Source: Patescibacteria group bacterium (lineage in GTDB: Bacteria > Patescibacteriota > Minisyncoccia > RBG-13-40-8-A). From it: 64,000 bases of DNA. The DNA lies in assembly GCA_043807255.1 (NCBI GenBank), contig JAZDGD010000007.1, positions 17,069-81,068 of the forward strand, read 5' to 3'. Position 1 is the first letter of the stretch, and every line of letters starts with the position of its first letter. Shown here one piece after another: positions 7,344 through 55,980 of the stretch. The notes under the pieces were generated by a model that saw nothing but the letters and a program-made list of their open reading frames with translations, ran no database searches and was not told where the DNA came from. The position numbers were made by a program, and so were the translations under genes.

Positions 7344-7545
7344 GTTATACGAGAACAAACCCGTTTTTGAAAGGTTTATTCCTGTTGGACTTCGTTCGCA
7401 CATATTCAATTTTTATTTACTTCCGCCCATAACGGAACCTCCTTAATTCTTACAATAATTATTACGTGGGGGGTAAATATTTATTTCATTTAATTTTTCG
7501 TCTTTACTCTGTCAGAAAATTCTGATATTATTGTAATAAACTAAT

Positions 7546-8700
7546 ATGAAAATCATTATCGCTACTCCGTTATATCCACCAGAAATTGAAACCCTTGCTT
7601 CTTATGTAAAAGAATTGGCAACGAGATTAAAGAAATATCACGAAATCACAATCGTTGCTTATGCAAGTACTGCGGAGCAAATACCGGGAGTAAAATTAAT
7701 TACCGTAAGCAAACATTTGCCGCTTTTAATACGGCTTTTTATGTATACGTTTGTCTTATTGAAAGCATCAAAGCATGCCGATATTATTTATGCCCAAAAT
7801 TCAGCAACTTCTGGATTCGCATCTATAATTGTTCAAAAATTGAGAAAAATCCCCGTTGTTATCAATTTTGCAGAACACGAGGCATGGAAACGTGCGATTC
7901 AATTGCAGGCAACAACCGAACCATTGGAAAGTTTCGTGCGAACAAAATGCAATAATAGAAGAATAAGTTCTATTATGCGATTACAGAAATGGACAATAAA
8001 TCGCGCGAATAACATAATTTTTTCTTCTACAGAATTAGCACAAACAATCTCTAAAAATTACAATATTCCCGATTCTAAGATTATAATAAATTTTAACGCA
8101 CCCAAAAAACCACAAATATTGCCATTTGAAATACATCATATGCCATATCAGATTTTTACCAACGGACATCTCTTTAGGTGGAACAATATTGCGGACATTT
8201 TAGATGCTATATCCACATTAAAACAAAAATTTCCTGACATCAAACTTTTAATTTCCGGAGAAGGACCGGAAAAAGAAAACTTAAAAATGTTAACAGAGAG
8301 ATTAAGTATATCAAATAACATTATTTTTTTGGGCAGAATTTCCGAGGCCGAAGAGTGGTATCTGCTTAAAGCCTCTCAAATTTATATTCATAATTACAAT
8401 TTCATCCACGAGAATTTCCCCAGCATAATCACCTCTTGTTTCTCTGCCGAAACGCCGATAATTAGTTCGAATATTAACAACATACAAGAAATTATCTTTA
8501 ACAACAACGGAGTGTTGGTTAAATCTAATAGCGCACAAGAACTATCAGGCAGTATTACAAAAATATTTAACGATGATAATTTCAAACACGAACTAATCAA
8601 CAATGCCAAGAAATCTTTAATTGAAAAATTTTCTTGGGATATTCACATCGAAACGTTAAACAATCTTTTCGAAAAAATTTATGTCGACAGAACAAAATAA
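7546..8700 (+). CDS. glycosyltransferase family 1 (GT4-like)
   Basis: The C-terminal GT-B domain carries an EGP/EG..E-type motif region (ISGEGPEKENL ... FSAETP). Confidence 0.7.
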   Translation: MKIIIATPLYPPEIETLASYVKELATRLKKYHEITIVAYASTAEQIPGVKLITVSKHLPLLIRLFMYTFVLLKASKHADIIYAQNSATSGFASIIVQKLRKIPVVINFAEHEAWKRAIQLQATTEPLESFVRTKCNNRRISSIMRLQKWTINRANNIIFSSTELAQTISKNYNIPDSKIIINFNAPKKPQILPFEIHHMPYQIFTNGHLFRWNNIADILDAISTLKQKFPDIKLLISGEGPEKENLKMLTERLSISNNIIFLGRISEAEEWYLLKASQIYIHNYNFIHENFPSIITSCFSAETPIISSNINNIQEIIFNNNGVLVKSNSAQELSGSITKIFNDDNFKHELINNAKKSLIEKFSWDIHIETLNNLFEKIYVDRTK

Positions 8701-9772
8701 TCAGTCTTGGCAACAAAATTATAAATCAGAGCTCGAAAAAATCGCGCCAATTTTAGATAATTTAAATATTGTTCTGGATAGATCACAGGTACATGTGAGC
8801 GGAGAACGTTATTACACTAATAATAAAAAATTAGTACTCATTGGCGAAGATGTTAAAAACAAAAAGCGCGTTGCAATTAAGATGGGATTAGATCTCGATT
8901 CCATTAATGAGATACTCGTTGAAAAAAAATGTCGCGAAGTTTTAAAAAAGATAAATTTTGCTTCACACGTTTTTCTCTCTCCGGAAGAAGTATTCTTCGT
9001 CAACAAATCGGATTTTGTAGTTTTTATAACTGCATACGTCGAACAGGAATGTACGTTTTTAGAAAGACCAATGCAAGAACAATTTTTTCTTGCTCTTAAA
9101 ACATTCGAAGCACAAGAGGGGCTACATGCAACAACCTATGAACATGCAAATGTTATTAGTAAAATATTTGGAATTTGGGACGCCAAAAATTACTTAAAAA
9201 CCTTCGATGTTTATAGAAACGAAATCGTTTCGAAATTACCAGGAAACAATAAATTAAAAACACTTCTCACCGAAACGTTTGGTTTTTTAAACAAAAATTC
9301 CGAAATCATTAATCTCTATTCTGGATTTCTAGTACATTGGGACTTTGTTCCACACAATATTCGCGTAGTAGGTCGTGATGTTTATTTTTTGGACCATTCA
9401 TCGATGCGTTTCGGAAACAAACATGAAAGTTGGGCAAGATTCATAAATTTTATGACTCTTTATAATCCGGAACTAGAAAGAGCCCTTATCGAATATATAA
9501 AAAATAATCGTAGCCAAGAAGAAACATTGTCGCTACAATTGATGCGTATTTTTCGTTTAACGGAACTGATAAAGTATTATGTTTCTACCCTTGGAAATTT
9601 ATCTGGAAATATTCTCACTTTAAACAAAAAACGCATTGATTTTTGGGGCAATGCGCTTGAAGCGGTATTACATAATCAATTAATGCGTAAAGAAATAATT
9701 GACGAATATAAAACTACGCGCGATTCACTTCGTAGCGATGACGAAAAGCAAAGACAAAAAAATCTACATTAA
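8681..9772 (+). CDS. protein-kinase-like (APH/choline-kinase fold) phosphotransferase
   Basis: RVAIKMG (beta3 Lys), an HWDFVPHN catalytic loop (HxDxxxxN) and a downstream FLDHS (DFG-like) motif. Confidence 0.5.
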   Translation: MSTEQNNQSWQQNYKSELEKIAPILDNLNIVLDRSQVHVSGERYYTNNKKLVLIGEDVKNKKRVAIKMGLDLDSINEILVEKKCREVLKKINFASHVFLSPEEVFFVNKSDFVVFITAYVEQECTFLERPMQEQFFLALKTFEAQEGLHATTYEHANVISKIFGIWDAKNYLKTFDVYRNEIVSKLPGNNKLKTLLTETFGFLNKNSEIINLYSGFLVHWDFVPHNIRVVGRDVYFLDHSSMRFGNKHESWARFINFMTLYNPELERALIEYIKNNRSQEETLSLQLMRIFRLTELIKYYVSTLGNLSGNILTLNKKRIDFWGNALEAVLHNQLMRKEIIDEYKTTRDSLRSDDEKQRQKNLH

Positions 9773-28812: not shown

Positions 28813-30312
28813 TTATTTTATCCAATATTTTTCACGGATTTTTAGATCTTCTTCTTCCTTTTTTTCTTCGATTTTACCTTTGGCTAATTTGCGAAGAACT
28901 TCTAGGTTTTCTTCGTTTAATTCTAAAACTCTTTTTTCTAAATATTTCTTATTATTGTTCTTCGGCTCTTCAATTACTTCCGCCAACAAAACATCCAAAA
29001 TCGCACCTACTTTTGGACTGGGTTCGATTTTTAACAATTTCATTATATCCGTGCCATTAATTTTCAACATCTTTGCAGAAATCGGATCCTTGGAAATTTT
29101 TTCAATCATATACTCAATTGTTCTTAAACGATAGGGTTTTTCTTTCGGCCTTCCCATTCCCAATCTATCGGCAACTCTTAAATTAATCAAATCAACAATA
29201 TTTTCTTTGCCCACTCTTTTTAATAATCTTCTTGCGCCAGCATCAGTTAATTTTTCTGGGTCGGAAACAAACATATGATTTCTAACCAGCAAAACAACTT
29301 TATCAATAAATTTATTGGAGAATTTTAATCGTTTTAAAATTTTATCGACAAATTTCGCACCAACATAATCGTGATTATAAAAAGTAGAGTCGGGGCCTTC
29401 GCCTTGTTTGGTTTCTGGCTTACCAATATCATGGAATAAGGCCGCAACCTTTACTTCTAAATTAAAATCTTTCTTTGCTGCTTCATCCAACGCCCTTAAA
29501 GAGTGCTCATAAATATCATAAATATGGTGCTTGTTTTGGCTTACGCCAACACCCTTGTCGAGTTCTGGCAAAATGAATTTAAGTAAATTTGTTTGTCGCA
29601 ATAAATCAATTCCATTTGCTGCTTTTTTGGTTTGAAAAATTTTAATTAATTCGTCGTGAATTCTTTCATTGGAAATCATTTGAATTAATTCTGCATTTTT
29701 TTGAATCGCCTTAAAGGTTTTTTCCTCGATCGTAAAATCAAGGGTGCAGGCGAATCTTACCGCTCTTAGCATTCTTAGTGCGTCTTCATCGAATCTTTTA
29801 TTCGCATCGCCAACCGCACGAATTATTTTATTTTTTAAATCTTTCTGTCCATCGAAAAAATCTAATATTCGGACGTCCGATGTCCTACCATTCTTAATGT
29901 CGGGACATCGGACGTCCCCCATTTTTAACGCGAGTGCATTTACCGTAAAATCCCGCCTGGCAAGATCTTCTTCTAACTTTTTAGCAAAAGTTATTTCGTC
30001 AGGATGACGCTTGTCAGAATATTTTCCCTCTAAGCGAAAAGGCGTGATCTCGACAATTTTTAATGTTTCGTCTTTAGAATCAGTAATTACGCTTACTGTG
30101 CCAAATTGATTTTCATAAAAATTTTTAGGGAATAACTTTCTAATTTGTTCCGGTTTAGCATTAGTAGTAATGTCCCAATCGTTGGGCTTAATGTCTCTTC
30201 CTTCGACTTCGCTCAGGACGAGGTCGCGAACACAACCACCAACAGCATAAGCTTCGTAGTCATTCTTAATCAATTTTTCTAATATTAAATTAACTTCCTT
30301 GGGAATTGTCAT
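28813..30312 (-). CDS. cca: CCA-adding tRNA nucleotidyltransferase with an HD domain. Carries two in-frame palindromic-element insertions
   Basis: GGCVRD, RRDFTVNALA and HDIGKP. The inserted peptides are SEVEGRD and KMGDVRCPDIKNGRTSDVR. Confidence 0.88.
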   Translation of the reverse strand: MTIPKEVNLILEKLIKNDYEAYAVGGCVRDLVLSEVEGRDIKPNDWDITTNAKPEQIRKLFPKNFYENQFGTVSVITDSKDETLKIVEITPFRLEGKYSDKRHPDEITFAKKLEEDLARRDFTVNALALKMGDVRCPDIKNGRTSDVRILDFFDGQKDLKNKIIRAVGDANKRFDEDALRMLRAVRFACTLDFTIEEKTFKAIQKNAELIQMISNERIHDELIKIFQTKKAANGIDLLRQTNLLKFILPELDKGVGVSQNKHHIYDIYEHSLRALDEAAKKDFNLEVKVAALFHDIGKPETKQGEGPDSTFYNHDYVGAKFVDKILKRLKFSNKFIDKVVLLVRNHMFVSDPEKLTDAGARRLLKRVGKENIVDLINLRVADRLGMGRPKEKPYRLRTIEYMIEKISKDPISAKMLKINGTDIMKLLKIEPSPKVGAILDVLLAEVIEEPKNNNKKYLEKRVLELNEENLEVLRKLAKGKIEEKKEEEDLKIREKYWIK

Positions 30313-30373
30313 AGCAATTTTTTAAATTTTAAATGGTATTGAAATATTTTAAAGTTATCCACAGGCGAAAATC

Positions 30374-30401
30374 TTGACATCGGTCTTCTTAATGGTATAC
30401 T
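30374..30401 (+). promoter_or_regulatory. sigma70 promoter TTGACA-16-TATACT, preceded 9 nt upstream by AGTTATCCACAG (30353-30364)
   Basis: Read directly from the sequence. Confidence 0.6.
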
Positions 30402-30407
30402 GATAGT

Positions 30408-30486
30408 GCGGTCGCAAGATTGCCCTGCTCGCGGATGCGAGTCCGAGATTTAAACTTCGCCTTTTAAAGGCGAGGTTTTGTTTTTA
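30408..30486 (+). ncRNA. candidate small RNA of about 75 nt: promoter, internal hairpins, then an intrinsic terminator (30455-30485)
   Basis: The terminator CTTCGCCTTTTAAAGGCGAGGTTTTGTTTTT is plus-oriented. No ORF lies between the promoter and the terminator. Confidence 0.4.
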
Positions 30487-31114
30487 TAAAAGTAATTCCC
30501 TTTTTTATTCTTTGAGCATTGATATTCAAATCTGCTCTTTCTTTAAGATAATGCGTAATATATCCCGCACTAAATAAAATTACTTTTTTCTTTCTTCTTC
30601 TTAAAAAATTTAACAAATAGGCAAAATCTGCGTCGCTGGAAAATAAACAAAAAGTGTCATATTTGTCTAAGAATCTTATTGCATCAATACAAATTTCGGC
30701 ATCAAAATTACATTTCGGGATGTAAACGTATCTACCTTGATCGTCTTGATCTATGTTTCTTGTTGTGCTTTTTTCTTCGGAGGAATCTAAATAATGTCTA
30801 ATTTTTTGTATCGGTTTGGTAATTGTTTTGTCAAAATATTGTCTTGCTTTACTGATAATTTTGATAGATTTTTGCTTTGTTGTGTCCAGGCCAAAATAAA
30901 ATCTTTTATGCTCTGAAAATAAATTTATGAAACCTGCTAATTTTTCTATATCAACCACCAACTTTTTGTCTTGTGATAAAACATTATCATCGCCATCTCT
31001 TTCGTCTCTTTCGTACCAATAGTTTACATTCCCAAAATCAACAAAACTATAAATTTTACCAAATTTATTTTTATCTATTTCTAAGTTTTCTAATTTAAAC
31101 TCACACAAATCCAT
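30464..31114 (-). CDS. NYN/LabA-like (PIN-like) domain protein
   Basis: FSSDADFAYLL. A paralogous architecture occurs at 36881..37396. Confidence 0.55.
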   Translation of the reverse strand: MDLCEFKLENLEIDKNKFGKIYSFVDFGNVNYWYERDERDGDDNVLSQDKKLVVDIEKLAGFINLFSEHKRFYFGLDTTKQKSIKIISKARQYFDKTITKPIQKIRHYLDSSEEKSTTRNIDQDDQGRYVYIPKCNFDAEICIDAIRFLDKYDTFCLFSSDADFAYLLNFLRRRKKKVILFSAGYITHYLKERADLNINAQRIKKGITFIKTKPRL

Positions 31115-31178
31115 TATATCTTAACCATACCTTAAAAATGCGTTTATGACAAATAAAAAAATCGCATTGAACACGACT

Positions 31179-31252
31179 TGGTGCCCCCACAAGGAATCGG
31201 ACCTTGGTCAGCTGCTTAAAAGGCAGTTGCTTTACCATTAAGCTATGGGGGC
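31179..31252 (-). tRNA. tRNA-Lys (anticodon UUU) with encoded 3' CCA
   Basis: GCCCCCA...TGGGGGCACCA. Anticodon loop CTTTTAA. Confidence 0.8.
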
Positions 31253-31270
31253 GTATTTATATTATTTAGA

Positions 31271-31921
31271 TTAATTAATATGATTGCATATTTCTTCAAT
31301 CCATGCAAGAATTCTATGCCTTAAATTCTCATTATTGACCTGAATTCTAAGCGTTCCATTGTATAACTTGTTCTTTCTGTGACCAGTGCCTTCTTTTTTG
31401 AAGAAAGTGCTTCCAAATCTATTTGTCGAAATATGAACTATTTTTGACCAATATCTTTTTGCTTTTTTTTCATTAAGACCAGTGTGAAGGTGTAAATATG
31501 GCTTAATCTTGTTTTCTGGCACCATACAAACATCTCGATACCATTTCATCATAAATTTGATCAATAATGGATCAGAATTTGTGAAAGACGAACTTTTAAC
31601 CTTAGATCCTTCGGCCCAATACAATGCCGCACCGATCATTTTAATCTCGTAATTGTTTAAGTGCTTAATTTCTTTCTTCGCATTTTTTTTAATAACTTCA
31701 ATCTCTTTTTGTCTTTTTAGTTGGTTGGCTTTGGCACCACGGAATTGGGTATCATACAAAGAACCCAGACGAGTGATCTGTTTTTTGGTCAATTTAACGT
31801 TTTTACACCATGCGCTAATAGTGCTTTTGCTCACAGGAACCCGTTTCACTATTTCCGAATAGCTGAATCCCTTTTTTCTTAACTCCATAGCACGCTCTTT
31901 CAATTGCCATTTTCTAGTCAT
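31271..31921 (-). CDS. HTH-domain protein with a LAGLIDADG-like motif (putative homing-endonuclease-like), embedded between two tRNA-Lys genes
   Basis: N-terminal HTH (GFSYSEIVKRVPVSKSTIS) and IGAALYWAEGSK. Confidence 0.35.
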   Translation of the reverse strand: MTRKWQLKERAMELRKKGFSYSEIVKRVPVSKSTISAWCKNVKLTKKQITRLGSLYDTQFRGAKANQLKRQKEIEVIKKNAKKEIKHLNNYEIKMIGAALYWAEGSKVKSSSFTNSDPLLIKFMMKWYRDVCMVPENKIKPYLHLHTGLNEKKAKRYWSKIVHISTNRFGSTFFKKEGTGHRKNKLYNGTLRIQVNNENLRHRILAWIEEICNHIN

Positions 31922-31991
31922 AATCGTATATGTTAATTAATACTACATGATTACATATTAAGTATACGATCATAAAATTGTATTGTCAATT

Positions 31992-32062
31992 TGCCCCCAC
32001 AAGGAATCGGACCTTGGTCAGCTGCTTAAGAGGCAGTTGCTTTACCATTAAGCTATGGAGGC
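31992..32062 (-). tRNA. tRNA-Lys (anticodon CUU), no encoded CCA
   Basis: Identical to the UUU copy except at position 4 (C to T) and position 34 (T to C). Confidence 0.8.
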
Positions 32063-32069
32063 AGAAGAA

Positions 32070-32141
32070 TGCCCTCGGCAGGAATCGAACCCGCAATTGC
32101 GCGTCCGAAGCGCGCCGTGTTATCCATTATACCACGAGGGC
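32070..32141 (-). tRNA. tRNA-Arg (anticodon UCG), no encoded CCA
   Basis: Acceptor GCCCTCG/CGAGGGC, anticodon stem GCGCG/CGCGC with loop CTTCGGA, T-loop TTCGATT. Confidence 0.75.
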
Positions 32142-32199
32142 AACAATAAAATCATACCCTATAATTAATTTATGGTCAATTTAATCCGCCCCAATATTA

Positions 32200-32228
32200 T
32201 TGACACGTGTCTTAATCTGTGGTAATAT
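32200..32228 (+). promoter_or_regulatory. sigma70 promoter TTGACA-17-TAATAT overlapping the palindrome GACACGTGTC. A strong SD (AAGGAGG) follows
   Basis: Read directly from the sequence. Confidence 0.55.
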
Positions 32229-32252
32229 TTTAATACCAAAAAGGAGGGCAAA

Positions 32253-32495
32253 ATGCACCCTATTAGACGCATAAAGTACTTATATGTAAGGCGCTTGAGA
32301 AGACCGTGGCGAAAAGTTAAGGCGCGCTTCAAAAATCGGAATGAAGCCAAAAAAGACGTTAAACTAAAACACGAAGCGGCTGAAAGACACCGCAAAGAAG
32401 CATTAGCAAAAAATCACTATTATAAGCGACGACACGAAGAGAGGCTAATGAATTCCGAGCACTCTGAACGCCGCAAATCCCCTCACATCAAATGA
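32253..32495 (+). CDS. small, highly basic (Arg/Lys/His-rich) hypothetical protein of 80 aa
   Basis: A strong promoter and SD precede it. It ends with a TGA stop. Confidence 0.5.
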   Translation: MHPIRRIKYLYVRRLRRPWRKVKARFKNRNEAKKDVKLKHEAAERHRKEALAKNHYYKRRHEERLMNSEHSERRKSPHIK

Positions 32496-32531
32496 ATGGT
32501 GGGAGGGGATATTTTCATACAAAAATTAATT

Positions 32532-33704
32532 CTAAAATATTCCTGACAAATAATAAAGTCCCATTGCCAATAAAACAATCGCTTCAACTAAACTCAACCA
32601 TTTCATTGCTTTGCCCGACACAATTTTTATATTCATCGTGAAAACGGCAATTAGGAAAACGATAATCTCGTCTAACATGTAAAACAAAACATACACTATA
32701 AGATGAAAAATATAACTCGATAAGGAAACTCCCGCATGGGTCATGACTCCCGCAAATAGAACCGGTATCACTGCCGAACAGGGGAATTCTACGATCGTAA
32801 TTACGGCAGCGAAAATTATTACACCCACGATCAATCCCCATATTCCACCTGATTTTTTAAACGCTTCTTGAATTTTTACAGATTGCTTGTTAACGATTTT
32901 ATTTCCTTGACTATCGCAAACTAAATTTTGTTTTTTAGATTTTAAAAATTGTCTTAAAAAATATATTGAACCCAAAATCCCTAAGATTCCTACAAACAAA
33001 TTCATTACTTTTAAAACGGGACTTAAATAATAAAATAATTGATACCACAAAAAAATCAAGGCACCATAAATTATGGCTGTAACTAAAATGTATAATCCAC
33101 CAAAAAGAATAATTTTTGATCGTGATTTCAGGATTAAGACTAATCCCAAAATCATTATTAATGCACCCAAAGAACAAACACTAAATCCATCAAAAAACCC
33201 CAAAATTATTGCTTGCATTAATAACGAATATTTGCTCAAATCTACTTCTCCTAGAATTGGAACATTTATCTTGTTTTTGTCTTTTTCTTCTGGCTTTTCA
33301 GCGTTTAATTGTTTTTCAATTGAATTAATTATTTCTTGACCAGTACTTGATTCGTCGTTAAAGCCCAAAATAAAATCTTCGCCAACAAATGTCATTGGTA
33401 CAGCTCCCAAATATTTATCAGCATTATGTTTTTTGACGGAGTCAATTAATAATTGTCTGTGCGTAATATCGGTGACTAAGTAACGATTAATTTGCACATC
33501 TGGATAATCTGGTGCTATTCTATCCAAAAATGCGCTTTCTGCCTTACAATGAATACACGTTTCAGAATAGAAAAAATTAATCTCTAATTTTATTTCTGCG
33601 GACTTGTCCGCCGAAGCTTTAGCGAAGGCGGGCGCAAAAAAAGGAGCTACGATTGTAAGCCCAATTAAAGCGAACGCAATAAAACCGGATAATCTTTTTG
33701 CCAT
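32532..33704 (-). CDS. secreted thioredoxin-fold domain (CIHC) fused to a CcdA/DsbD-like polytopic membrane domain
   Basis: Signal peptide, CxxC, and two membrane-embedded Cys (FSVCSLG, EFPCSAV). Confidence 0.55.
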   Translation of the reverse strand: MAKRLSGFIAFALIGLTIVAPFFAPAFAKASADKSAEIKLEINFFYSETCIHCKAESAFLDRIAPDYPDVQINRYLVTDITHRQLLIDSVKKHNADKYLGAVPMTFVGEDFILGFNDESSTGQEIINSIEKQLNAEKPEEKDKNKINVPILGEVDLSKYSLLMQAIILGFFDGFSVCSLGALIMILGLVLILKSRSKIILFGGLYILVTAIIYGALIFLWYQLFYYLSPVLKVMNLFVGILGILGSIYFLRQFLKSKKQNLVCDSQGNKIVNKQSVKIQEAFKKSGGIWGLIVGVIIFAAVITIVEFPCSAVIPVLFAGVMTHAGVSLSSYIFHLIVYVLFYMLDEIIVFLIAVFTMNIKIVSGKAMKWLSLVEAIVLLAMGLYYLSGIF

Positions 33705-33814
33705 TGTATTTTAATACTACAATATTTTAATTTTTATTTCCACTGCCTCTTGCTTTTTTCGACGAGACTTGATAGTATGAATACGGATACGCACATTTCA
33801 GAAGGAGGAGATTA

Positions 33815-34132
33815 ATGAAAGATGTAAGCATCGAAAGATTGATTAAAGATGCGCGTCGTGTTCTCGACTATCCTTTTTGGATTCCAGACGTAGAGACGAT
33901 GAGACGATACACGAGAATTCACGATGATCACGATGGAACCTTCCAGGGTGCAATCACTGTGATATTTAGCAAAGATGGCGATGCCTGGGTCGAATTCGAT
34001 CCAACCCACAACGCATCTCCATTGAGATTTCGTGGTGATTTGGGTGGAGGCATGAGTTTACGAACTAAAAATGCTCTTATGATTTTGGCTCTTGCTATTA
34101 AACTGGACAACGAAGAAGCACCCCAGCGCTAG
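33815..34132 (+). CDS. hypothetical protein (105 aa)
   Basis: Strong SD GAAGGAGGAG. A terminator hairpin plus T-run follows at 34166-34196. Confidence 0.5.
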   Translation: MKDVSIERLIKDARRVLDYPFWIPDVETMRRYTRIHDDHDGTFQGAITVIFSKDGDAWVEFDPTHNASPLRFRGDLGGGMSLRTKNALMILALAIKLDNEEAPQR

Positions 34133-34231
34133 CAATCCCAGCAAATTAATCGTTAATCGGTTACGGCCGCATGGTTCGCCCAGCGGCTTTTTTATTTATA
34201 ATTTTGAAAAAGTTATCCACAGACGCCACTA

Positions 34232-34260
34232 TTGATTTTCGGTTTTCTTTCGGTATATAA
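34232..34260 (+). promoter_or_regulatory. promoter TTGATT-17-ATATAA with AGTTATCCACAG 9 nt upstream (34211-34222)
   Basis: Same architecture as the promoters at 30353 and 42506. Confidence 0.5.
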
Positions 34261-34281
34261 TTGTAATATAGTAATGAAATT

Positions 34282-35841
34282 ATGTTAACAGAAAAACAGC
34301 AAAAAATATTCGATTATATCAAGAAATATATAAAGAAAAATAACTACTCGCCTTCTCTCCAAGAGATCGCGAAACGTTTCAAGTTATCATCGATATCTGG
34401 CGTGCACCAACACGTCGAAGCGCTCAAATCAAAAGGCTATTTAAATAAATTTGAAAATCATCCAAGGACAATCCAAATATCAAATAAATTCAAAAGATTA
34501 AATTTTGTAAAAATACCAATTCTCGGAACCATCACCGCCGGACAACCAATAGAAGTTATTGAAACGCTAGGCGAAACAATTAATGTTTCGAAAAACGAAA
34601 TAAGTCCCTATTTTGATTATTATGCCCTTAAAGTCAAAGGCGACAGTATGATCGATGAGGGAATTTTTGACGGAGATACTGTTGTAATTAAAAAACAATC
34701 TACGGCAGAAAATGGCCAAACAGTGGTCGCCATAATAAATCAGAACGAGGCCACCTTAAAGAAAATCTACAAATTAAAAAATATTTTTAAATTGCAACCG
34801 GCAAATCAGAATATGTTACCAATTTATACAAACGAAATTGAGATTAGAGGTGTTCTCGTTAAAACTATTCCTGGTTTTCCAAGCACAAAAAACCAAACAA
34901 CGATCAGAACCCTGGATTTGTTCGCAGGGATTGGTGGCATACGTCTCGGATTCGAAAAGAATGGATTTGAAACAGTATTCTCTAATGATTTTGACGAAAA
35001 TTGCAAGACAACTTACGATTTAAATTTTAAAACCTCAAAACTTGTTACCGAAGACGTAACTAAAATTGGAATCGATGATTTGCCAGAATTTGATTTCTTG
35101 CTAGCAGGATTTCCGTGTCAAGCATTTTCAATTGCTGGATATCGACAAGGATTCAAGGACGAGAAAGGAAGGGGGAATCTATTTTTCGATATTGCGAGAA
35201 TTATTGACGCCCGGAAACCGAAAGGTTTCTTATTGGAAAATGTTAAGAATCTAATTAGCCACGACAATGGAAAAACGTTTAAAATAATAACGGAAACATT
35301 GAAAAATCTTGGCTATCACATTAAACCCGAAGTTTTAAATAGCATGAATTACGGTAACGTTCCACAAAATCGAGAGAGAATCTATATCGTGGGATTTAAA
35401 GACAAAAATAACATAGAGAAATTTAATTTTCCCGAACCCATAAAACTAGAAACAAAAATCAACGATTTTCTGGAAGAAAACGTTGATAATAAATACTATT
35501 ATAACGACAAGCCTCTCTATAAAAAACTCAAAGATTTTGTAAAAGAAGAAAATAAGATTTATCAATGGCGTAGACAATATGTGCGAGAAAATAAAAAAGG
35601 AGTTTGCCCAACGCTAACAGCAAATATGGGAACCGGCGGACACAATGTGCCAATTATAAAAGACAAAAAAGGAATCAGAAAACTGACTCCTCTTGAATGT
35701 TTTAGGTTGCAGGGTTTTTCGAAAGATTTTATATTGCCCAAATTGGCGGATTCTGTTTTATATAAACAGGCCGGAAATTCCGTAACCGTTTCGGTAGTTG
35801 AAAGAATTGCAAAAAAAATAAAAAGCGTAATGGATAATTAA
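34282..35841 (+). CDS. LexA-like repressor (wHTH plus S24 peptidase with Ala-Gly site, Ser and Lys) fused to a DNA (cytosine-5) methyltransferase
   Basis: N-terminal 200 aa are collinear with LexA (ITAGQP, GDSM, TLKK). The C-terminal part carries FAGIGG (motif I), FPCQAFS (IV), ENVKNL (VI), QNRERIY (VIII) and GNSV (X). Confidence 0.85.
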   Translation: MLTEKQQKIFDYIKKYIKKNNYSPSLQEIAKRFKLSSISGVHQHVEALKSKGYLNKFENHPRTIQISNKFKRLNFVKIPILGTITAGQPIEVIETLGETINVSKNEISPYFDYYALKVKGDSMIDEGIFDGDTVVIKKQSTAENGQTVVAIINQNEATLKKIYKLKNIFKLQPANQNMLPIYTNEIEIRGVLVKTIPGFPSTKNQTTIRTLDLFAGIGGIRLGFEKNGFETVFSNDFDENCKTTYDLNFKTSKLVTEDVTKIGIDDLPEFDFLLAGFPCQAFSIAGYRQGFKDEKGRGNLFFDIARIIDARKPKGFLLENVKNLISHDNGKTFKIITETLKNLGYHIKPEVLNSMNYGNVPQNRERIYIVGFKDKNNIEKFNFPEPIKLETKINDFLEENVDNKYYYNDKPLYKKLKDFVKEENKIYQWRRQYVRENKKGVCPTLTANMGTGGHNVPIIKDKKGIRKLTPLECFRLQGFSKDFILPKLADSVLYKQAGNSVTVSVVERIAKKIKSVMDN

Positions 35842-35844
35842 TAA

Positions 35845-36408
35845 TTACCAAACTTTTACATTACACGCAATTGGTTTTAATTTGCATCTTTCAATGATTT
35901 CTTTAGTTATACTAAATCTTGGTCTTCGTTTTTGTTTTTGTTGTTGCCTTAATGTTTGTTTCTTGTTTACTTTGGCATTAAGTATAAATCTAGATGGAAT
36001 TTTATAGACGTTAAAAGTCCCGTCTAGTTTTTTCTCATTATAAAAATCTAAAAAATACAAATCGTCCCATTGAGATTTTGGGCCAAATGTTGTTAAGTCG
36101 TGCTTTATACTAGATGCCTTTATTTGTTCAGCTCTTTTGGTTTTTAAATTAAATGTATCAAAAGATGTTGATGCTTCTCCCCTTAGGGATATAAATCTTT
36201 TCGAACCCGAAAACAAACAAAACGCCACCTCAGACAGACCCTCTGGCAAATTAGGTTCTCGTGATTTATATTCGCGCATACCTAATTTTAATTTTTTCCA
36301 TATATCAAAAAGTGCTTTCCATTTTTTACTGTCTTCTTTGTCAAAGCTCATGAGTTCCACTAAGCATTCCTTACCAAAGATAACGGTTTTGTATTGATCA
36401 ATATGCAT
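35845..36408 (-). CDS. hypothetical protein; candidate cognate type II restriction endonuclease, inferred only from its convergent position next to the methyltransferase
   Basis: Context only. No recognisable motif. Confidence 0.3.
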   Translation of the reverse strand: MHIDQYKTVIFGKECLVELMSFDKEDSKKWKALFDIWKKLKLGMREYKSREPNLPEGLSEVAFCLFSGSKRFISLRGEASTSFDTFNLKTKRAEQIKASSIKHDLTTFGPKSQWDDLYFLDFYNEKKLDGTFNVYKIPSRFILNAKVNKKQTLRQQQKQKRRPRFSITKEIIERCKLKPIACNVKVW

Positions 36409-36880: not shown

Positions 36881-37396
36881 ATGTCTATTATCAAAAACAA
36901 GGATCAAAGAGTGGGAATTTTTATTGACGTACAAAATATGTACCACTCCGCAAAAAATATTTACGGAGCAAGGGTTAATTTTAGAGAAATTTTAAAAACC
37001 GCAGTTGCTGGCAGAAAACTTATTCGCGCAATTGCTTATGTTGTTACTACCGAATCCGGAGATGAAAAAGCATTTTTGGAAGCTTTAACCAAATCGGGAA
37101 TCGAGGTTAAAAGTAAGGATTTACAAATCTTTCCTGGCGGAATGAAAAAAGCAGATTGGGATGTGGGCATGGCAGTGGATGCAATTAGTTTGAATACAAA
37201 ATTAGATAGCGTGGTTTTGGTTACTGGCGATGGTGACTTTGTGCCGTTAGTAGAATTTTTACAATCACAAGGACAGCAAGTGGAAGTAATTTCATTTGGC
37301 AAAAGCGCATCCGCAAAATTGAGAGAAGCAGTTGATGATTTTGTCGATCTTAGCGCTTCCCCACAAAAGTACTTAATAGGAATAAGAAATAAGTAA
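36881..37396 (+). CDS. NYN/LabA-like domain protein inserted between rpsO and pnp
   Basis: VGIFIDVQNMY ... GDGDFVPLVEFL. Confidence 0.7.
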   Translation: MSIIKNKDQRVGIFIDVQNMYHSAKNIYGARVNFREILKTAVAGRKLIRAIAYVVTTESGDEKAFLEALTKSGIEVKSKDLQIFPGGMKKADWDVGMAVDAISLNTKLDSVVLVTGDGDFVPLVEFLQSQGQQVEVISFGKSASAKLREAVDDFVDLSASPQKYLIGIRNK

Positions 37397-40775: not shown

Positions 40776-40971
40776 GGAAGTGGTTTACCGCGAGCGAAGC
40801 ACCTTTGGTGCTGAGTCGAGTGGGGATAACTTGTTTAAAACATAATTTTAGGAAAACAAAACTCATCGATGTCAAGGGCGAAAATACTATATTTTAGCTC
40901 TAAAAACACAAGATTGTCTCAAAACCTTGATATTGACGAAATCATTAAAACTTATCCACAACCAGAATAAC

Positions 40972-42507
40972 ATGAATAAAGTTTATTCAGCTGCAACAAC
41001 GGGATTAGACGCCGAACTCATTGAGGTGGAGGCAGATTTATCTTCTGGCCTCCGCTTTTTTAGTATCGTTGGCCTTCCCGACAAATCAGTTGAAGAGTCC
41101 AAGGAAAGAATTGCTGCGGCCATAAAAAATAGTGGAGCCGAACCTCCGCATAAACAAAATAAACGCGTAATTATCAACTTGGCACCTGCCGATTTAAGAA
41201 AAGAGGGTTCGGGATATGACCTACCAATTGCTTTAAGTTTTTTATTGTCATCCCAACAAATAGAATTTGATGCTGAAGACAAAATTTTTGTTGGCGAGCT
41301 TGCCTTAAATGGCGAAGTAAGGAGAGTTAATGGGGTTTTACCAATTTGTTTGGCAGCAAAAGAAAAAGGAATTAAAAATGTTTTTGTCCCAAAGTCAAAC
41401 AGCAATGAAGCACGATTAGTGAAAGATATTAACGTCTATCCTGTTGAATCTTTGGCGGAATTAATCGGATTTTTAGAAAATAGAATTGAAATCAAAGCGT
41501 TAGAACCATTTGATGAAAATTTCTTGGAAGGATTTGAAACTGCATTTCCATCAACAGTAGATATGGCATACATTAAGGGCCAGGAAAACGCTAAACGAGC
41601 ATTAGAAATTGCAGCTAGCGGAAATCATAATATCATTATGACCGGCCCACCTGGGTCTGGAAAAACTTTATTGGCCAAAGCAATTCCCACTATTCTACCG
41701 AGAATGGCATGGAGTGAGGTTTTAGAGGTGACTAAAATTTATAGTGTTTCGGGAAAATTATCCCATAAAAAACCATTCATCCACCAAAGACCATTTCGCT
41801 CTCCCCACCATAGCGCGTCAGAAGCAAGTATGATTGGAGGCGGGGGATTTGCAAGACCAGGAGAAATAACTTTAGCACATCGGGGAGTTCTATTTATTGA
41901 TGAATTTCCAGAAATACATCGTGATGTCTTGGAAAGTTTAAGGCAACCGCTTGAAGATGGAGTTGTGCATATTTCTAGGGCAAAGGCGAGTTATAGTTTT
42001 CCTTCAAGATTTATTTTGGTCGCGGCGATGAACCCCTGTCCTTGCGGATATTATGGCGACCCAGAGAAACAATGCACCTGCAATCAACAACAAATCGGCA
42101 AATATCAGCGCAGAATTTCTGGACCAATTATGGATAGAATTGATTTATATGTTGAAGTGCCACACGTTAAATATGGAAAATTAACCGATGAATCGGTTGA
42201 GGGTTCGAGCGAAGAAATTCGAGAAAAGGTGGAAAAGGCAAGGAAAATTCAATTGGAAAGATTTAAAGATGATAATATTGTTACTAATTCAGAAATGAAC
42301 ATCCCTTTAGTTAAAAAGCATTGCCAGACCGATGAGCAAGGCGAAATGTTATTAAAAAATGCAGTAAATAATCTGCATATGTCTGCGCGTGGATATCATC
42401 GCATTCTTAAGCTCGCCCGCACAATCGCCGATCTCGCCGACATGCCCAATATCACCCACATCCACATCGCCGAAGCATTGCAATATAGACCAAAGATGGA
42501 AATATAG
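40972..42507 (+). CDS. comM: Mg-chelatase-like AAA ATPase YifB/ComM. The track's TTG at 40927 is probably not the start
   Basis: GPPGSGKT and a C-terminal YRPK motif; collinear over about 510 aa. Confidence 0.85.
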   Translation: MNKVYSAATTGLDAELIEVEADLSSGLRFFSIVGLPDKSVEESKERIAAAIKNSGAEPPHKQNKRVIINLAPADLRKEGSGYDLPIALSFLLSSQQIEFDAEDKIFVGELALNGEVRRVNGVLPICLAAKEKGIKNVFVPKSNSNEARLVKDINVYPVESLAELIGFLENRIEIKALEPFDENFLEGFETAFPSTVDMAYIKGQENAKRALEIAASGNHNIIMTGPPGSGKTLLAKAIPTILPRMAWSEVLEVTKIYSVSGKLSHKKPFIHQRPFRSPHHSASEASMIGGGGFARPGEITLAHRGVLFIDEFPEIHRDVLESLRQPLEDGVVHISRAKASYSFPSRFILVAAMNPCPCGYYGDPEKQCTCNQQQIGKYQRRISGPIMDRIDLYVEVPHVKYGKLTDESVEGSSEEIREKVEKARKIQLERFKDDNIVTNSEMNIPLVKKHCQTDEQGEMLLKNAVNNLHMSARGYHRILKLARTIADLADMPNITHIHIAEALQYRPKMEI

Positions 42508-42544
42508 TTATCCACAGTATTAACTATTGACAAACATATCTTAT

Positions 42545-42922
42545 ATGATATATACTGATTCTAATGAATATAAAGTAAAATTTTTCGTTGATCCCAAAAC
42601 AGGAAAAGATCCAGTTATGAAATACATTAATGATTTAGACGAAAAACAGAAAGCAAAAGTTTCTAGATTTATCGAATTTTTAAGACAACACGAAGGCGTA
42701 TTAGATGAGCCATACTCAAAACACATTAAAGGCAAAATTCGCGAATTAAGGATTGATTTTGGCAAAAATAGACACAGAATCTTCTATTTTACGTTCATCA
42801 ACAAGAACATCATATTGCTCCACGCATTTTTAAAGCATACGCAAAAAACTCCTGAAACTGAGATAAAAATCGCTGAAAATAATTATAATATTGTAATTAA
42901 TAATCCAAAATTTTATGAATAA
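42545..42922 (+). CDS. higB: HigB/Gp49-like (RelE/ParE superfamily) toxin. Start uncertain: alternatives are 42617 or the TTG at 42527, which is more likely a -35 hexamer
   Basis: IRELRIDFGKNRHRIFYF ... LLHAFLK, similar to Gp49/HigB-2. Confidence 0.6.
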   Translation: MIYTDSNEYKVKFFVDPKTGKDPVMKYINDLDEKQKAKVSRFIEFLRQHEGVLDEPYSKHIKGKIRELRIDFGKNRHRIFYFTFINKNIILLHAFLKHTQKTPETEIKIAENNYNIVINNPKFYE

Positions 42923-43317: not shown

Positions 43318-43455
43318 ATGACCAAGAAAATAAAAGCAAGAGATTTCCAAAAATATCTTGCCGAACAATTAAAAAATCCTGAATTTAAGAAACATTACGA
43401 TAAATTCGGCAAAAAATTAAGGCAGAATTATAAAAAAAGCGAAATACATGATTAA
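43318..43455 (+). pseudogene. truncated second copy of the HigA-like antitoxin (N-terminal 45 codons only)
   Basis: MTKKIKARDFQKYLAEQLKNPEFKKHYD, against MNKKIKARDFQKYLAQQLKNPEFKRHYD in the intact copy. Confidence 0.55.
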
Positions 43456-53043: not shown

Positions 53044-55980
53044 ATGCTCAACAAATTTCAAAAAATAATAATTTCTTCCATTATATTTTGTTTAATTTTT
53101 GGTTTTGTTTTTAATATATTTCTTACCAGACCAAAAATAGTACAAGCAACTGACGGAGGTGCTGGTTTTTTAAATTTAATGAAAGAGACAGTACTTGACG
53201 CTGTCGGTTGGGGAGTTACGGATATGGTATTGAAACCATTAAAACAAAAAATACAGGATTGGGGGATGGGCAAAACAAGCGATAGCAACACACCATTCTT
53301 TGTTATGGATTGGAAAAAGTTTTGGGACGACGCATTAGATATTGCTTCAGCAAAATTTATAGAAGAACTGGGAGCGACAAAGCTTTGCGGACCATTACAA
53401 ATAAGCATTGGTCAAAATCCAACATTTACTACATATTATAGTGACAAACCACAATACAAAAACTATTCTGCTTGCACGCTTGATAATGTTGTGGATAATG
53501 TTGAGTCGTTTTTTAAAAATCCATCAATTTCTGTTTATGGCTGGGACGCATGGACAGCATTAACTCAACCGAATAATAATTTTTTGGGTGCGTATCTGAT
53601 GGCAGCGCAAAGACAAGATGAATTGGCACAGGAAGAACTTGATGCCAAAAACAAAGAAACCGCAGTAAGCGAGGGGACTAAAAATGAAACAACAACTAAG
53701 GCAACGGACACTGATACTTGTAATAAAAAATGTGATACTGATTTCCCAACCACAACTCCTGGCAACGACATAAAATGGAATGATTGTCTCGACAAGTGCG
53801 AGACAACAACAAAAGGCGTTCCAACACAAAGCGGGGTTAAGAATCTCGGAGCAACAATCAAAGAGAATATGGACAAGGCCCTGGGAGCAGATATGAGCAG
53901 AATCATTAGTGCAGACGAAATCAGTGAACTTGTGGGAGTGTTTTTTAGCGCTGTTTTAAACAAAGCTATTGATGGATTAGGACTAGTCCCATCTTCTGCT
54001 AACCAAACAACCCAAGAACAGAATCGAAACGAAAATAAAGATCTTTACGGATACGGAACATCGGTAGGGCAAACAATTACCCCTGAAATGCAAAAAGACA
54101 TCCGCACTACTATTTTAAATGGCACACTTAAGGGAGTACAAATGATATCGAGAGCAACAGCAAAATGTAAAGATGAAAAAACGATGCTTACTGAATTAGA
54201 TTTCAATAAAAACATTACTGACATGTATTCGGCACAATTAGAAGCATTGTATGTCGGAACAACCGGAATTGCCTTAAAGCCCGACTTTACAGTATTAGAC
54301 TCTCCATTCGCTCCGTTTTCTCTATACGGTTATCGTTGGGGAGAAATTCCTGTAAACAAGATACCAGCTAAGTGCAAAAAGATGATCACTCAGTCAAGCG
54401 GAGGATTAACCGCTTCCTGCAAAGATATTGTTAGCGGTCTTGAGCCAAATTACAGTAAACAATGCACTCAATGTATTTATGATGATAGCGAATTAAATTG
54501 TCCACCTGCACCATATCCGCCATTTTCAAAACCATCCGTATTAACAAAAGCAGTGGTTACTGCCAAACAAGAATTTTATAGTGGTTGTATGAACTGGTAT
54601 GAAGTAACAACCAATAGATGTAAAGAATGTGTGAAAAAGACAGATGAAAAATGCGATCAGGAAGATGGCGCTCAAAAACAAGCATGCATTGAAAGCGTCT
54701 GCAGTAATTACGAAGACCTGAAACCACATGTTGTCTCTACAATAAGCAGTGGCATTGATTTCCATAGTAAGTGTTTGCTTGAAGAAACAAAAACATCTTG
54801 TTTCACCTGCCTTAAAGAATATTTTATGCCTGCGTCATACTGCGATGATATGAGTGCATTTACTGCGCGCGCATTAATAAAATATCCTGGCGTGGTATTG
54901 ATGGGTGACGCCAGAACCAGTGCATATTTTATAGGGAGATACGATTCAACGTTTGCCGATGCATTTGAGGGTGGCACAAAATGTAATAACGATCGAGACG
55001 CAAAGAAAGCAATAGACGTAAGTTTGATTTGTCAAATTATGCCCGACTTTGAAGACAACGGCATAAAGGTCTGTAAACAATATTGTATGGGGCACGGTAT
55101 GACTGAAGCAGAATTAAACGATATTGTGGACAATCGACCAACAAATGAAGATTGTAACAATCAAAAATTAAACATCGGCGGAAGTATAAATGTTTGGAAT
55201 ACTGTTAGCAATGGGAATTTTCAACAATTAAGTAAATGTTGCGCAGCAACAAATACAACAGATCTAAAGAGATACCAAACTTGTATTGGGGGATCAAAAC
55301 CATTGGTAGATGTTCCCCCTGTGTCCCCTTGCACGTTTGCTAAGCCAGTCAATCAAGAACCAGAATGTTATTGTAATGACGGCGAAAGACCGTTGGGATG
55401 GGCTAAGGCAAAAGTTTTTCCAGAATATACCAATGAATCGGATATAAGTTTTTGTACAGATTTCGAATTTCAATCACCTGGCACAAAACGATTAAGAATA
55501 TATACTGACAGCACTCCTGGCGGAGCGGTCGTTTATATCGGCAAAGACAGCTGTACGTATAATGGTACATACAAATTACAAGAACCAACTTCTACTGCTT
55601 GCCCGCCAAGCAACCCATTATTTATGGCCGAGACTTCTTTTGGAACGAATTCACAAGAATTTTATTATAACTTATCAGACACAGGCACGTTGCATGGCGG
55701 AGTATTTAATAATGACTTAACCGACACAAAAGCGACCACAATGCACGTATGCGCTCCCTGTGACCCATCAGATACAGGATATCCCAACTATGGAACAAGC
55801 TTGAATCAATGTTCGGGCAAATTAAGTAGCACTTCTGGAAGCGAAGGGTCTTATGTCCCACCAATCATGCCTGGGGACTGTTCATATACTCCACCAGGAG
55901 GAATGCCATCGTGCCCGAAAGATAAATACAATAGATGCATCCCGCCCCAAGATGATGATCCGATGTGTGAATGCAGATAA
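53044..55980 (+). CDS. large (978 aa) Cys-rich secreted or surface protein, hypothetical
   Basis: N-terminal TM or signal; many Cys. Confidence 0.45.
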   Translation: MLNKFQKIIISSIIFCLIFGFVFNIFLTRPKIVQATDGGAGFLNLMKETVLDAVGWGVTDMVLKPLKQKIQDWGMGKTSDSNTPFFVMDWKKFWDDALDIASAKFIEELGATKLCGPLQISIGQNPTFTTYYSDKPQYKNYSACTLDNVVDNVESFFKNPSISVYGWDAWTALTQPNNNFLGAYLMAAQRQDELAQEELDAKNKETAVSEGTKNETTTKATDTDTCNKKCDTDFPTTTPGNDIKWNDCLDKCETTTKGVPTQSGVKNLGATIKENMDKALGADMSRIISADEISELVGVFFSAVLNKAIDGLGLVPSSANQTTQEQNRNENKDLYGYGTSVGQTITPEMQKDIRTTILNGTLKGVQMISRATAKCKDEKTMLTELDFNKNITDMYSAQLEALYVGTTGIALKPDFTVLDSPFAPFSLYGYRWGEIPVNKIPAKCKKMITQSSGGLTASCKDIVSGLEPNYSKQCTQCIYDDSELNCPPAPYPPFSKPSVLTKAVVTAKQEFYSGCMNWYEVTTNRCKECVKKTDEKCDQEDGAQKQACIESVCSNYEDLKPHVVSTISSGIDFHSKCLLEETKTSCFTCLKEYFMPASYCDDMSAFTARALIKYPGVVLMGDARTSAYFIGRYDSTFADAFEGGTKCNNDRDAKKAIDVSLICQIMPDFEDNGIKVCKQYCMGHGMTEAELNDIVDNRPTNEDCNNQKLNIGGSINVWNTVSNGNFQQLSKCCAATNTTDLKRYQTCIGGSKPLVDVPPVSPCTFAKPVNQEPECYCNDGERPLGWAKAKVFPEYTNESDISFCTDFEFQSPGTKRLRIYTDSTPGGAVVYIGKDSCTYNGTYKLQEPTSTACPPSNPLFMAETSFGTNSQEFYYNLSDTGTLHGGVFNNDLTDTKATTMHVCAPCDPSDTGYPNYGTSLNQCSGKLSSTSGSEGSYVPPIMPGDCSYTPPGGMPSCPKDKYNRCIPPQDDDPMCECR

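Follow-up and report, generated by a model that had tools for sequence, protein, structure and literature searches.

A predicted small RNA family of Patescibacteria, nearly always tail-to-tail with a NYN gene, and the putative DnaA box at its promoter

Promoters regulated by DnaA are known from Escherichia coli (dnaA, mioC, and nrdAB), from the regulon of Bacillus subtilis, and from the targets in Caulobacter. In type I toxin-antitoxin (TA) systems, such as RatA/txpA, SR4/bsrG, and SymR/SymE, a small RNA is convergent with the gene of a potentially harmful protein, and in type III systems, such as ToxIN and CptIN, an endoribonuclease gene is linked to a structured RNA. The locus described here resembles each of these in part. 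A box of the DnaA type abuts a near-consensus promoter, and this promoter precedes a predicted structured RNA that is convergent with a gene for a NYN nuclease.

Patescibacteria, or the candidate phyla radiation, make up a large share of bacterial diversity and have tiny genomes. To our knowledge, almost nothing is known about gene regulation in these bacteria, and we know of no DnaA regulon described in the phylum. A search of the freely accessible literature on Patescibacteria together with DnaA box, NYN, or sRNA returned no prior description of such a locus.

The RNA gene and its conservation

The stretch of DNA that was analyzed, 64 kb in length and called the window here, is AT-rich, with a GC content of 35%. 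By the orthologues of its cca gene, it belongs to Patescibacteria, near Candidatus Portnoybacteria. The coordinates of the locus and of the related sites are collected in Table 1. The sequence-only reading of this DNA had proposed a 12-mer, a 9-nt gap, a TTGACA/TATACT promoter, hairpins, and a terminator on the + strand, and the coordinates in the window confirm this layout. The promoter matches the consensus at 11 of 12 positions and has the TG of an extended −10. The predicted fold of the 87-nt + strand is −33.3 kcal/mol (z = −4.15 against shuffles), and that of the − strand of the same 87 nt is −22.9 kcal/mol (z = −2.45).

Table 1. Features of the sRNA locus and of the other box sites in the window
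Feature	Position	Strand	Details
cca (CCA-adding enzyme)	28813-30312	−	
Intergenic interval	30313-30463		flanked by two − strand genes, cca and NYN
12-mer AGTTATCCACAG	30353-30364	+	perfect DnaA box TTATCCACA at 30355-30363; candidate operator of the sRNA promoter
Gap between 12-mer and −35	30365-30373	+	9 nt
Sigma-70-type promoter	30374-30401	+	−35 TTGACA at 30374-30379; 16-nt spacer
Extended −10 TGgTATACT	30393-30401	+	TATACT hexamer at 30396-30401
Predicted sRNA, ~80 nt	30406-30485	+	start site placed at ~30406-30408 by inference; 3′ end within the T run
GC-rich hairpin region	30408-30442	+	
Helix 1	30408-30423	+	GCGGUC-GCAA-GAUUGC
Helix 2	30427-30442	+	GCUCGC-GGAU-GCGAGU; invariant closing G·U
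Intrinsic terminator	30452-30485	+	12-bp stem 30452-30478, then T run TTTTGTTTTT to 30485
NYN gene, 216 aa	30464-31114	−	PF01936, PIN-like; Pfam NYN 1e-14
Second 12-mer copy	34211-34259	+	12-mer, 9 nt, TTGATT-16-TATATA; upstream of lexA-dcm (ATG 34282)
Isolated perfect box	40952-40960	+	precedes the likely comM start (ATG 40972) by 12 nt
Third 12-mer copy	42506-42554	+	12-mer, 9 nt, TTGACA-16-TATATA; where comM ends and higB begins

Homologues of the element were found at 24 distinct loci in Patescibacteria metagenomes; these are phylogenetically related, and the locus counts given below are not independent events. Eight contigs were fetched by way of NYN homologues with 52-88% protein identity, and all eight carry the element directly downstream of the NYN gene on the opposite strand. 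A degenerate core pattern, run against metagenomes, gave 34 loci. About 15 are new, distinct, true copies, and the remainder are duplicates or chance matches in GC-rich coding DNA. Eleven copies were used to build a covariance model (R1), under which the homologues reach 48-109 bits and the window copy 105.5 bits. When R1 was run over the window and 80 cca loci (1.1 Mb), the window copy was the sole match.

The model alignment has 99.4% of its cells paired, compared with 30-47% for slid controls, and in 8 of its 22 pairs both partners have changed in a compensatory way. This holds for 5 of the 6 pairs of helix 1, in which 100% of cells are paired; its stem ranges from 5 to 8 bp among the homologues, with a GNRA or UUCG loop. 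The terminator stem has 10-12 bp. The GGAU loop of helix 2 and the flanking single-stranded CCCUG and CCGAGAU are near-invariant among the homologues, and the apparent invariance is inflated there because some of helix 2 and of the flanking sequence was prescribed by the pattern used for the scan. Three loci found without the pattern (L127-L129) do vary in the helix 2 region, with further compensatory changes. Pairing also discriminates between the strands, as 99.3% of cells pair on the + strand and 89.0% on the opposite one. Forty-eight G·U cells, including the invariant G·U that closes helix 2, turn into A·C on the other strand. Thus, the selected structure sits on the + strand.

The promoter and the Rho-independent terminator lie on this same strand in the window and are kept in the homologues, where the promoter equivalents have the same distance to helix 1 as in the window. 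In a comparison of the window with locus L081, the 12-mer and the two hexamers are kept upstream of the RNA, and nothing else is. We regard it as well supported that 30353-30485 constitutes a gene of its own, with a conserved structured RNA of about 80 nt as its predicted transcript. The candidate sRNA of the sequence-only reading has therefore gained in standing, since there are now 24 loci with their own promoter and terminator, strong covariation, and G·U pairs that fit the + strand only.

Other identities for the RNA were considered. No ORF in the sRNA is conserved among the homologues (L084 reads ATG TAA), and a 15-codon GTG frame in the window, which could have encoded a small peptide, is broken in them. 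Rfam 15 gave no family match at the sRNA with either gathering or permissive thresholds; the best match below threshold is the rnk_pseudo leader, with 25 bits against a cutoff of 55 bits, and tRNAs are the only families in the window that reach the gathering score. ARAGORN reports neither a tRNA nor a tmRNA at the site. A phage origin was rejected, with 0 matches in viral contigs. So was an alternative hairpin, formed by CGAGAU with AUCUCG as a rival to the terminator, which is 92.9% pairable, shows no covariation, and breaks where the terminator stem varies. The predicted sRNA thus represents a previously uncatalogued family, conserved in ultra-small Patescibacteria and nearly always tail-to-tail with a NYN gene.

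The convergent NYN gene

More than 300 Patescibacterial homologues of the NYN protein were found. Its conserved aspartates are D26, D138, D161, and D163, and the acidic active-site residues are kept. The structure model has a pLDDT of 88.9 and matches the LabA-like structure 2qip and the NYN endonuclease domain of MARF1.

A homologue of the 216-aa NYN gene is adjacent to the sRNA and convergent with it at 22 of the 24 loci. At one of the two exceptions (L102, 690-1139, + strand), the convergent gene in this position encodes a NYN protein of 149 aa, which was assigned as YacP/Rae1-like by eye from the translation. At this locus, a different NYN-superfamily nuclease holds the place of the 216-aa LabA-type NYN. 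At the other exception, on a contig of 2 kb, the sRNA is flanked by toxin-antitoxin pairs. On the side away from NYN, the neighboring gene varies and may be cca, an M20 peptidase gene, ruvB, a DUF1653 gene, or the gene for RNase HII. The sequence-only reading had drawn no connection to NYN; the sRNA is linked to this gene, and not to cca. Indeed, linkage to cca was rejected, as 80 cca loci (1.05 Mb) have neither the sRNA nor the 216-aa NYN gene. In the closest complete genome (L002), cca is directly beside the tRNAs, and the block of about 830 bp with the sRNA and NYN is absent between cca and tRNA-Lys. This block is an indel in the window relative to L002. We conclude that the predicted sRNA and the convergent NYN gene are a two-gene module.

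The two genes also share sequence at their 3′ ends. The NYN stop codon (30464-30466) falls in the loop of the sRNA terminator, and the terminator overlaps the last 8 NYN codons, so that about 22 nt are antisense to the 3′ coding end. The codons for the conserved C-terminus KPRL of NYN lie on the strand complementary to the terminator stem.

Two other genes in the window deserve mention. A 216-aa ORF at 31271-31921 (− strand), between two tRNA-Lys genes, has an N-terminal transposase-like HTH with weak matches to IS630 and IS3 N-termini. It is absent from L002 and may be a mobile insertion; the idea that it is a paralogue of the equally long NYN ORF was dropped, as there is no similarity between them. 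A second, different NYN-domain gene, of 171 aa, is located at 36881-37396 (+ strand) between rpsO and pnp, and its product has 32% identity over 63 residues to the sRNA-linked NYN.

The box at the promoter and its probable ligand

The 12-mer in the window is the same as E. coli oriC box R4 with its flanks, with a 12/12 match (AGTTATCCACAG(T)), and oriC R1 has GTTATCCACAG in common with it. The accepted consensus for the high-affinity DnaA box is TTWTNCACA (PMC12371093). The variants seen at the sRNA promoters (TTGTCCACA, TTATCAACA, and others) are close to this consensus. The gene dnaA is absent from the window. In a genome that carries one of the sRNA loci (L086), DnaA (L126) has a conserved domain IV (Bac_DnaA_C), with VAPRQ and GGKDHTTV. 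From these similarities, we infer that DnaA binds the box and serves there as a transcription factor.

The box accompanies the sRNA promoter in most lineages. It is perfect at 10 of the 24 sRNA promoters and has at most 1 mismatch at 18; the remaining 6 have no recognizable box, and for one of these the upstream sequence is incomplete. Ten boxes are forward, at distances of 4-10 nt to the −35 except for one at 20 nt, and eight are inverted, mostly 3-6 nt from the −35, with one within the spacer between −35 and −10 (L106). In either orientation, the distance to the −35 is usually 3-12 nt. Among the first 21 loci, 10 had a perfect box and 15 a box with at most 1 mismatch, compared with at most 2.8% of random 80-nt windows drawn from these loci (binomial p ~1e-19).

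A broader survey covered 1.11 Mb, comprising the window and 80 species of related genomes. It contains 27 perfect boxes, compared with a mean of about 10 for permuted 9-mers, and 15 of the 27 are intergenic, compared with 14% for the permuted controls. Eight of these 15 lie 0-12 nt from a promoter that scores at least 10/12, whereas 1.1% of intergenic controls do so (p ~1e-12), an enrichment of about 50-fold.

The window itself holds five perfect copies of TTATCCACA, at 30355, 34213, 40952, and 42508 on the + strand and at 53490 on the − strand, the last of which falls inside a coding sequence. Dinucleotide shuffles contain a mean of 0.70, and 0 of 100 reach five. The sequences between the conserved blocks of the three 12-mer copies are unrelated, so these copies are not recent duplications. 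The L002 site that is orthologous to the copy at 42506 reads AGTTATCCACAA, with unchanged geometry. The most plausible higB start, ATG 42545, which is conserved in L002 and gives a family-typical N-terminus, falls between the −35 and the −10 of this copy. In the single orthologue of lexA-dcm that was compared (70% identical), a site with 1 mismatch is the closest approach to a box, about 85 nt upstream of the −35. The comM box was rejected as a conserved feature, being present in the window and its closest relative L002 only.

These results bear unevenly on what the sequence-only reading had said about the motif. Its count of four perfect 9-mers falls short by one, and the statement that they exceed chance stands. 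The recurrence of the 12-mer at 34211 and 42506, at the identical 9-nt distance from the −35, is found in the sequence as described; the box at comM, which had been put at 40954, is at 40952. The proposed check for enrichment of the motif near promoters, run here on the 1.11 Mb, came out positive, and a shared, possibly DnaA-responsive regulon gains support from this enrichment by strong sigma-70-like promoters and from the box at 18 of 24 sRNA promoters. The fixed 9-nt spacing does not hold as a general rule, as it is confined to the species of the window, with orientation and distance varying elsewhere. Nor do the comparisons support conservation of the comM and lexA sites beyond the genus, with a counterpart of the first in L002 only and, for the second, no promoter-abutting box in the single orthologue compared.

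Several observations were made beside these sites. In the higB region (42527-42620), ATG 42564 opens just a 4-codon ORF, and higBA is closely followed by a truncated second higA N-terminus (43318-43434, + strand), with 74% identity over 39 aa. On L120 (710-860, + strand), a perfect DnaA box, 4 nt, and TTGACA-16-TATACT are followed by another element of about 100 nt, a long hairpin with a terminator (MFE −38.8, z −2.9, no Rfam match), 1.4 kb from the NYN-linked sRNA of that genome. In four other species, box-abutted strong promoters precede 75-350-nt leaders and genes for cell-wall proteins at L013 ~3823 (− strand), L040 ~1527, L047 ~2924, and L052 ~652; the protein types, with a peptidoglycan-binding domain, LysM/M23-like, or with a 3D-domain, were read by eye from the translations. 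Multiple copies of an 18-20-nt palindrome (ATGTTCCACGTGGAACAAT or TTGTTTCACGTGAAACAAT) occur in and around a long ORF at L076 ~9000-9500 and L048 ~7400-7900.

Could the ligand be a protein other than DnaA? The element would then be a real promoter-proximal operator bound by a different Patescibacterial protein, with a coincidental likeness to the DnaA box. The dnaA-dnaN spacer of one sRNA-bearing genome, an oriC-like region, has degenerate boxes only, and the conserved flanks, (A)G...G, extend past the canonical 9-mer; both points fit such a protein. However, the same flanks are present at E. coli R4 and R1, the motif is used in both orientations as a single asymmetric 9-mer in the manner of a DnaA box, and domain IV of DnaA is conserved in the lineage. 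Furthermore, the tolerated variants are classic variants of the DnaA box, and Patescibacteria encode few transcription factors. We therefore consider a different ligand somewhat unlikely and prefer DnaA.

It is a good deal less likely that the boxes serve to titrate DnaA or form a reservoir near the origin, in the manner of datA or the chromosomal high-affinity boxes, and are not transcriptional operators, with promoter proximity secondary. At ~31000-36000 in the window, genes change from mostly − strand on the left to mostly + strand on the right, and the cumulative GC skew has its minimum, as one would expect close to a replication origin. Four of the five boxes are next to this region. E. 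coli also accumulates DnaA boxes near oriC (PMC12371093). Yet neither a dense cluster of boxes nor an obvious unwinding element is present in the window, the box stays within a few nucleotides of the sRNA promoter amid unrelated neighbors, and the adjacency of boxes to promoters is far above that of intergenic controls. An oriC in the window was likewise rejected, as there is no cluster of boxes with up to 2 mismatches around 30-35 kb and no AT-rich unwinding element.

We find it highly improbable that there is no sRNA and that the hairpins are a terminator, perhaps bidirectional, with the 3′ UTR of NYN, preceded by chance promoter hexamers. The terminator does overlap the NYN 3′ end and could act on both strands, but it is on the + strand that the stem is followed by a T run, and the − strand has just TTTAAATCT there. 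Moreover, in about 20 lineages the 11/12 extended −10 promoter keeps a constant spacing to helix 1, and helices 1 and 2 covary, with G·U pairs that suit the + strand alone.

Barely credible is a role of the 12-mer as the operator of LexA-Dcm itself, under SOS-type control, for although the motif lies upstream of lexA-dcm and LexA proteins autoregulate, it is there a single asymmetric site at −55 to −44, neither repeat nor palindrome, the box-like site of the orthologue is imperfect and distant, and the lexA-dcm spacer has a conserved direct repeat of its own.

That repeat, TTCGGT-N5-TTCGGT at 34238-34254, is perfect, unique in the window, and kept in the 70%-identical orthologue (L131, 3934-3950). 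We take it as a candidate direct-repeat operator for LexA; motifs of this type are reported for Patescibacteria in work cited in PMC7739468, and this too speaks against the 12-mer in that role. The lexA-dcm gene (34282-35841, + strand) encodes 519 aa, with LexA (HTH and S24 peptidase) fused to a Dcm-type C5 cytosine methyltransferase, and adjoins a gene for a Bsp6I-like restriction enzyme (35845-36408, − strand). The three-domain fusion occurs in more than 120 protein clusters with 65-88% identity and is, by these matches, a conserved Patescibacterial protein. No description of a LexA-Dcm fusion was found in the freely accessible literature.

Proposed mechanism and likeness to known systems

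We consider it moderately likely that DnaA, probably as a repressor, gates the near-consensus promoter of an sRNA that partners with the NYN nuclease; the binding, its sign, and the function of the RNA are all read from sequence features. DnaA would bind the box beside the sRNA promoter, where the position, mostly 3-12 nt upstream of the −35 and within the spacer in L106, suits an effect on RNA polymerase. Bound DnaA would, most likely, repress by occlusion. Repression is favored because near-consensus promoters need no activator, because the box is found in either orientation at very short distances from the −35, and because one lineage has it between −35 and −10, the classic position for occlusion. 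The variable orientation and spacing of the box are consistent with occlusion. The output of the sRNA would then report the occupancy of DnaA, that is, the status of replication initiation.

The sRNA would act on the NYN nuclease through direct RNA-protein recognition. The near-invariant unpaired CCCUG, GGAU, and CCGAGAU point to direct recognition by a protein, most simply NYN. The complementarity of the 5′ part of the sRNA to the translation-initiation region of NYN is no better than in shuffles (z −1.8 to +1.0), so any antisense action would be confined to the 3′ overlap. Convergent transcription and this overlap, with the shared terminator, may add cis-antisense control of NYN.

Boxes before promoters at lexA-dcm and higBA in the species of the window, and before cell-wall genes and another small RNA in other Patescibacteria, suggest a small DnaA-linked regulon. 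A larger proposal is that the sRNA-NYN pair is a phylum-wide replication checkpoint, in which a protein-binding sRNA, its level governed by DnaA occupancy, would restrain or direct NYN. We think this quite unlikely. If it were true, the status of replication initiation would control RNA decay and growth in genome-reduced, regulator-poor bacteria, and the same DnaA boxes would coordinate lexA, toxin-antitoxin, and cell-wall remodeling genes.

The promoter architecture points to DnaA as a transcription factor in Patescibacteria, and the presence of its motif at the sRNA promoter hints at a link between RNA control and DNA replication. Together with the list of box-linked promoters (lexA-dcm, higBA, cell-wall enzymes, and the second small RNA), the predicted sRNA, its NYN partner, and the box offer a testable entry point into cell-cycle-linked regulation in Patescibacteria. 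The covariance model R1 can be used for annotating Patescibacteria genomes.

How does the locus compare with known systems? As at DnaA-regulated promoters elsewhere, a high-affinity TTATCCACA is beside or inside a sigma-70 promoter, as a single asymmetric site in either orientation, and the targets touch replication stress and the cell cycle (lexA and cell-wall enzymes). The differences are that the conserved target here is an sRNA paired with a NYN nuclease, that there is usually one box and not a cluster, and that DnaA is the putative ligand. Unlike E. coli R4 and R1 in oriC, the element is outside any origin, with neither a box cluster nor an unwinding element. The type I TA systems share with this locus a small, strongly promoted, terminator-ended RNA that is convergent with its partner and overlaps it at the 3′ end, and a partner gene for a potentially harmful protein; with SymE there are the further parallels of a nuclease-like protein and of a locus tied to DNA-status signaling. 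However, the antisense overlap here is about 22 nt, essentially a shared terminator, the conserved part of the RNA is outside it, and the partner is a soluble, conserved NYN enzyme of 216 aa and not a small (<~60 aa) hydrophobic toxin. As in type III TA systems, the locus couples a structured RNA to an endoribonuclease, which the RNA could bind or inhibit directly. In this case, the RNA is single-copy, with no tandem repeats, and lies downstream of the gene on the opposite strand, and the nuclease has a NYN/PIN-like fold, in contrast to the ToxN/Kid-like fold of type III.
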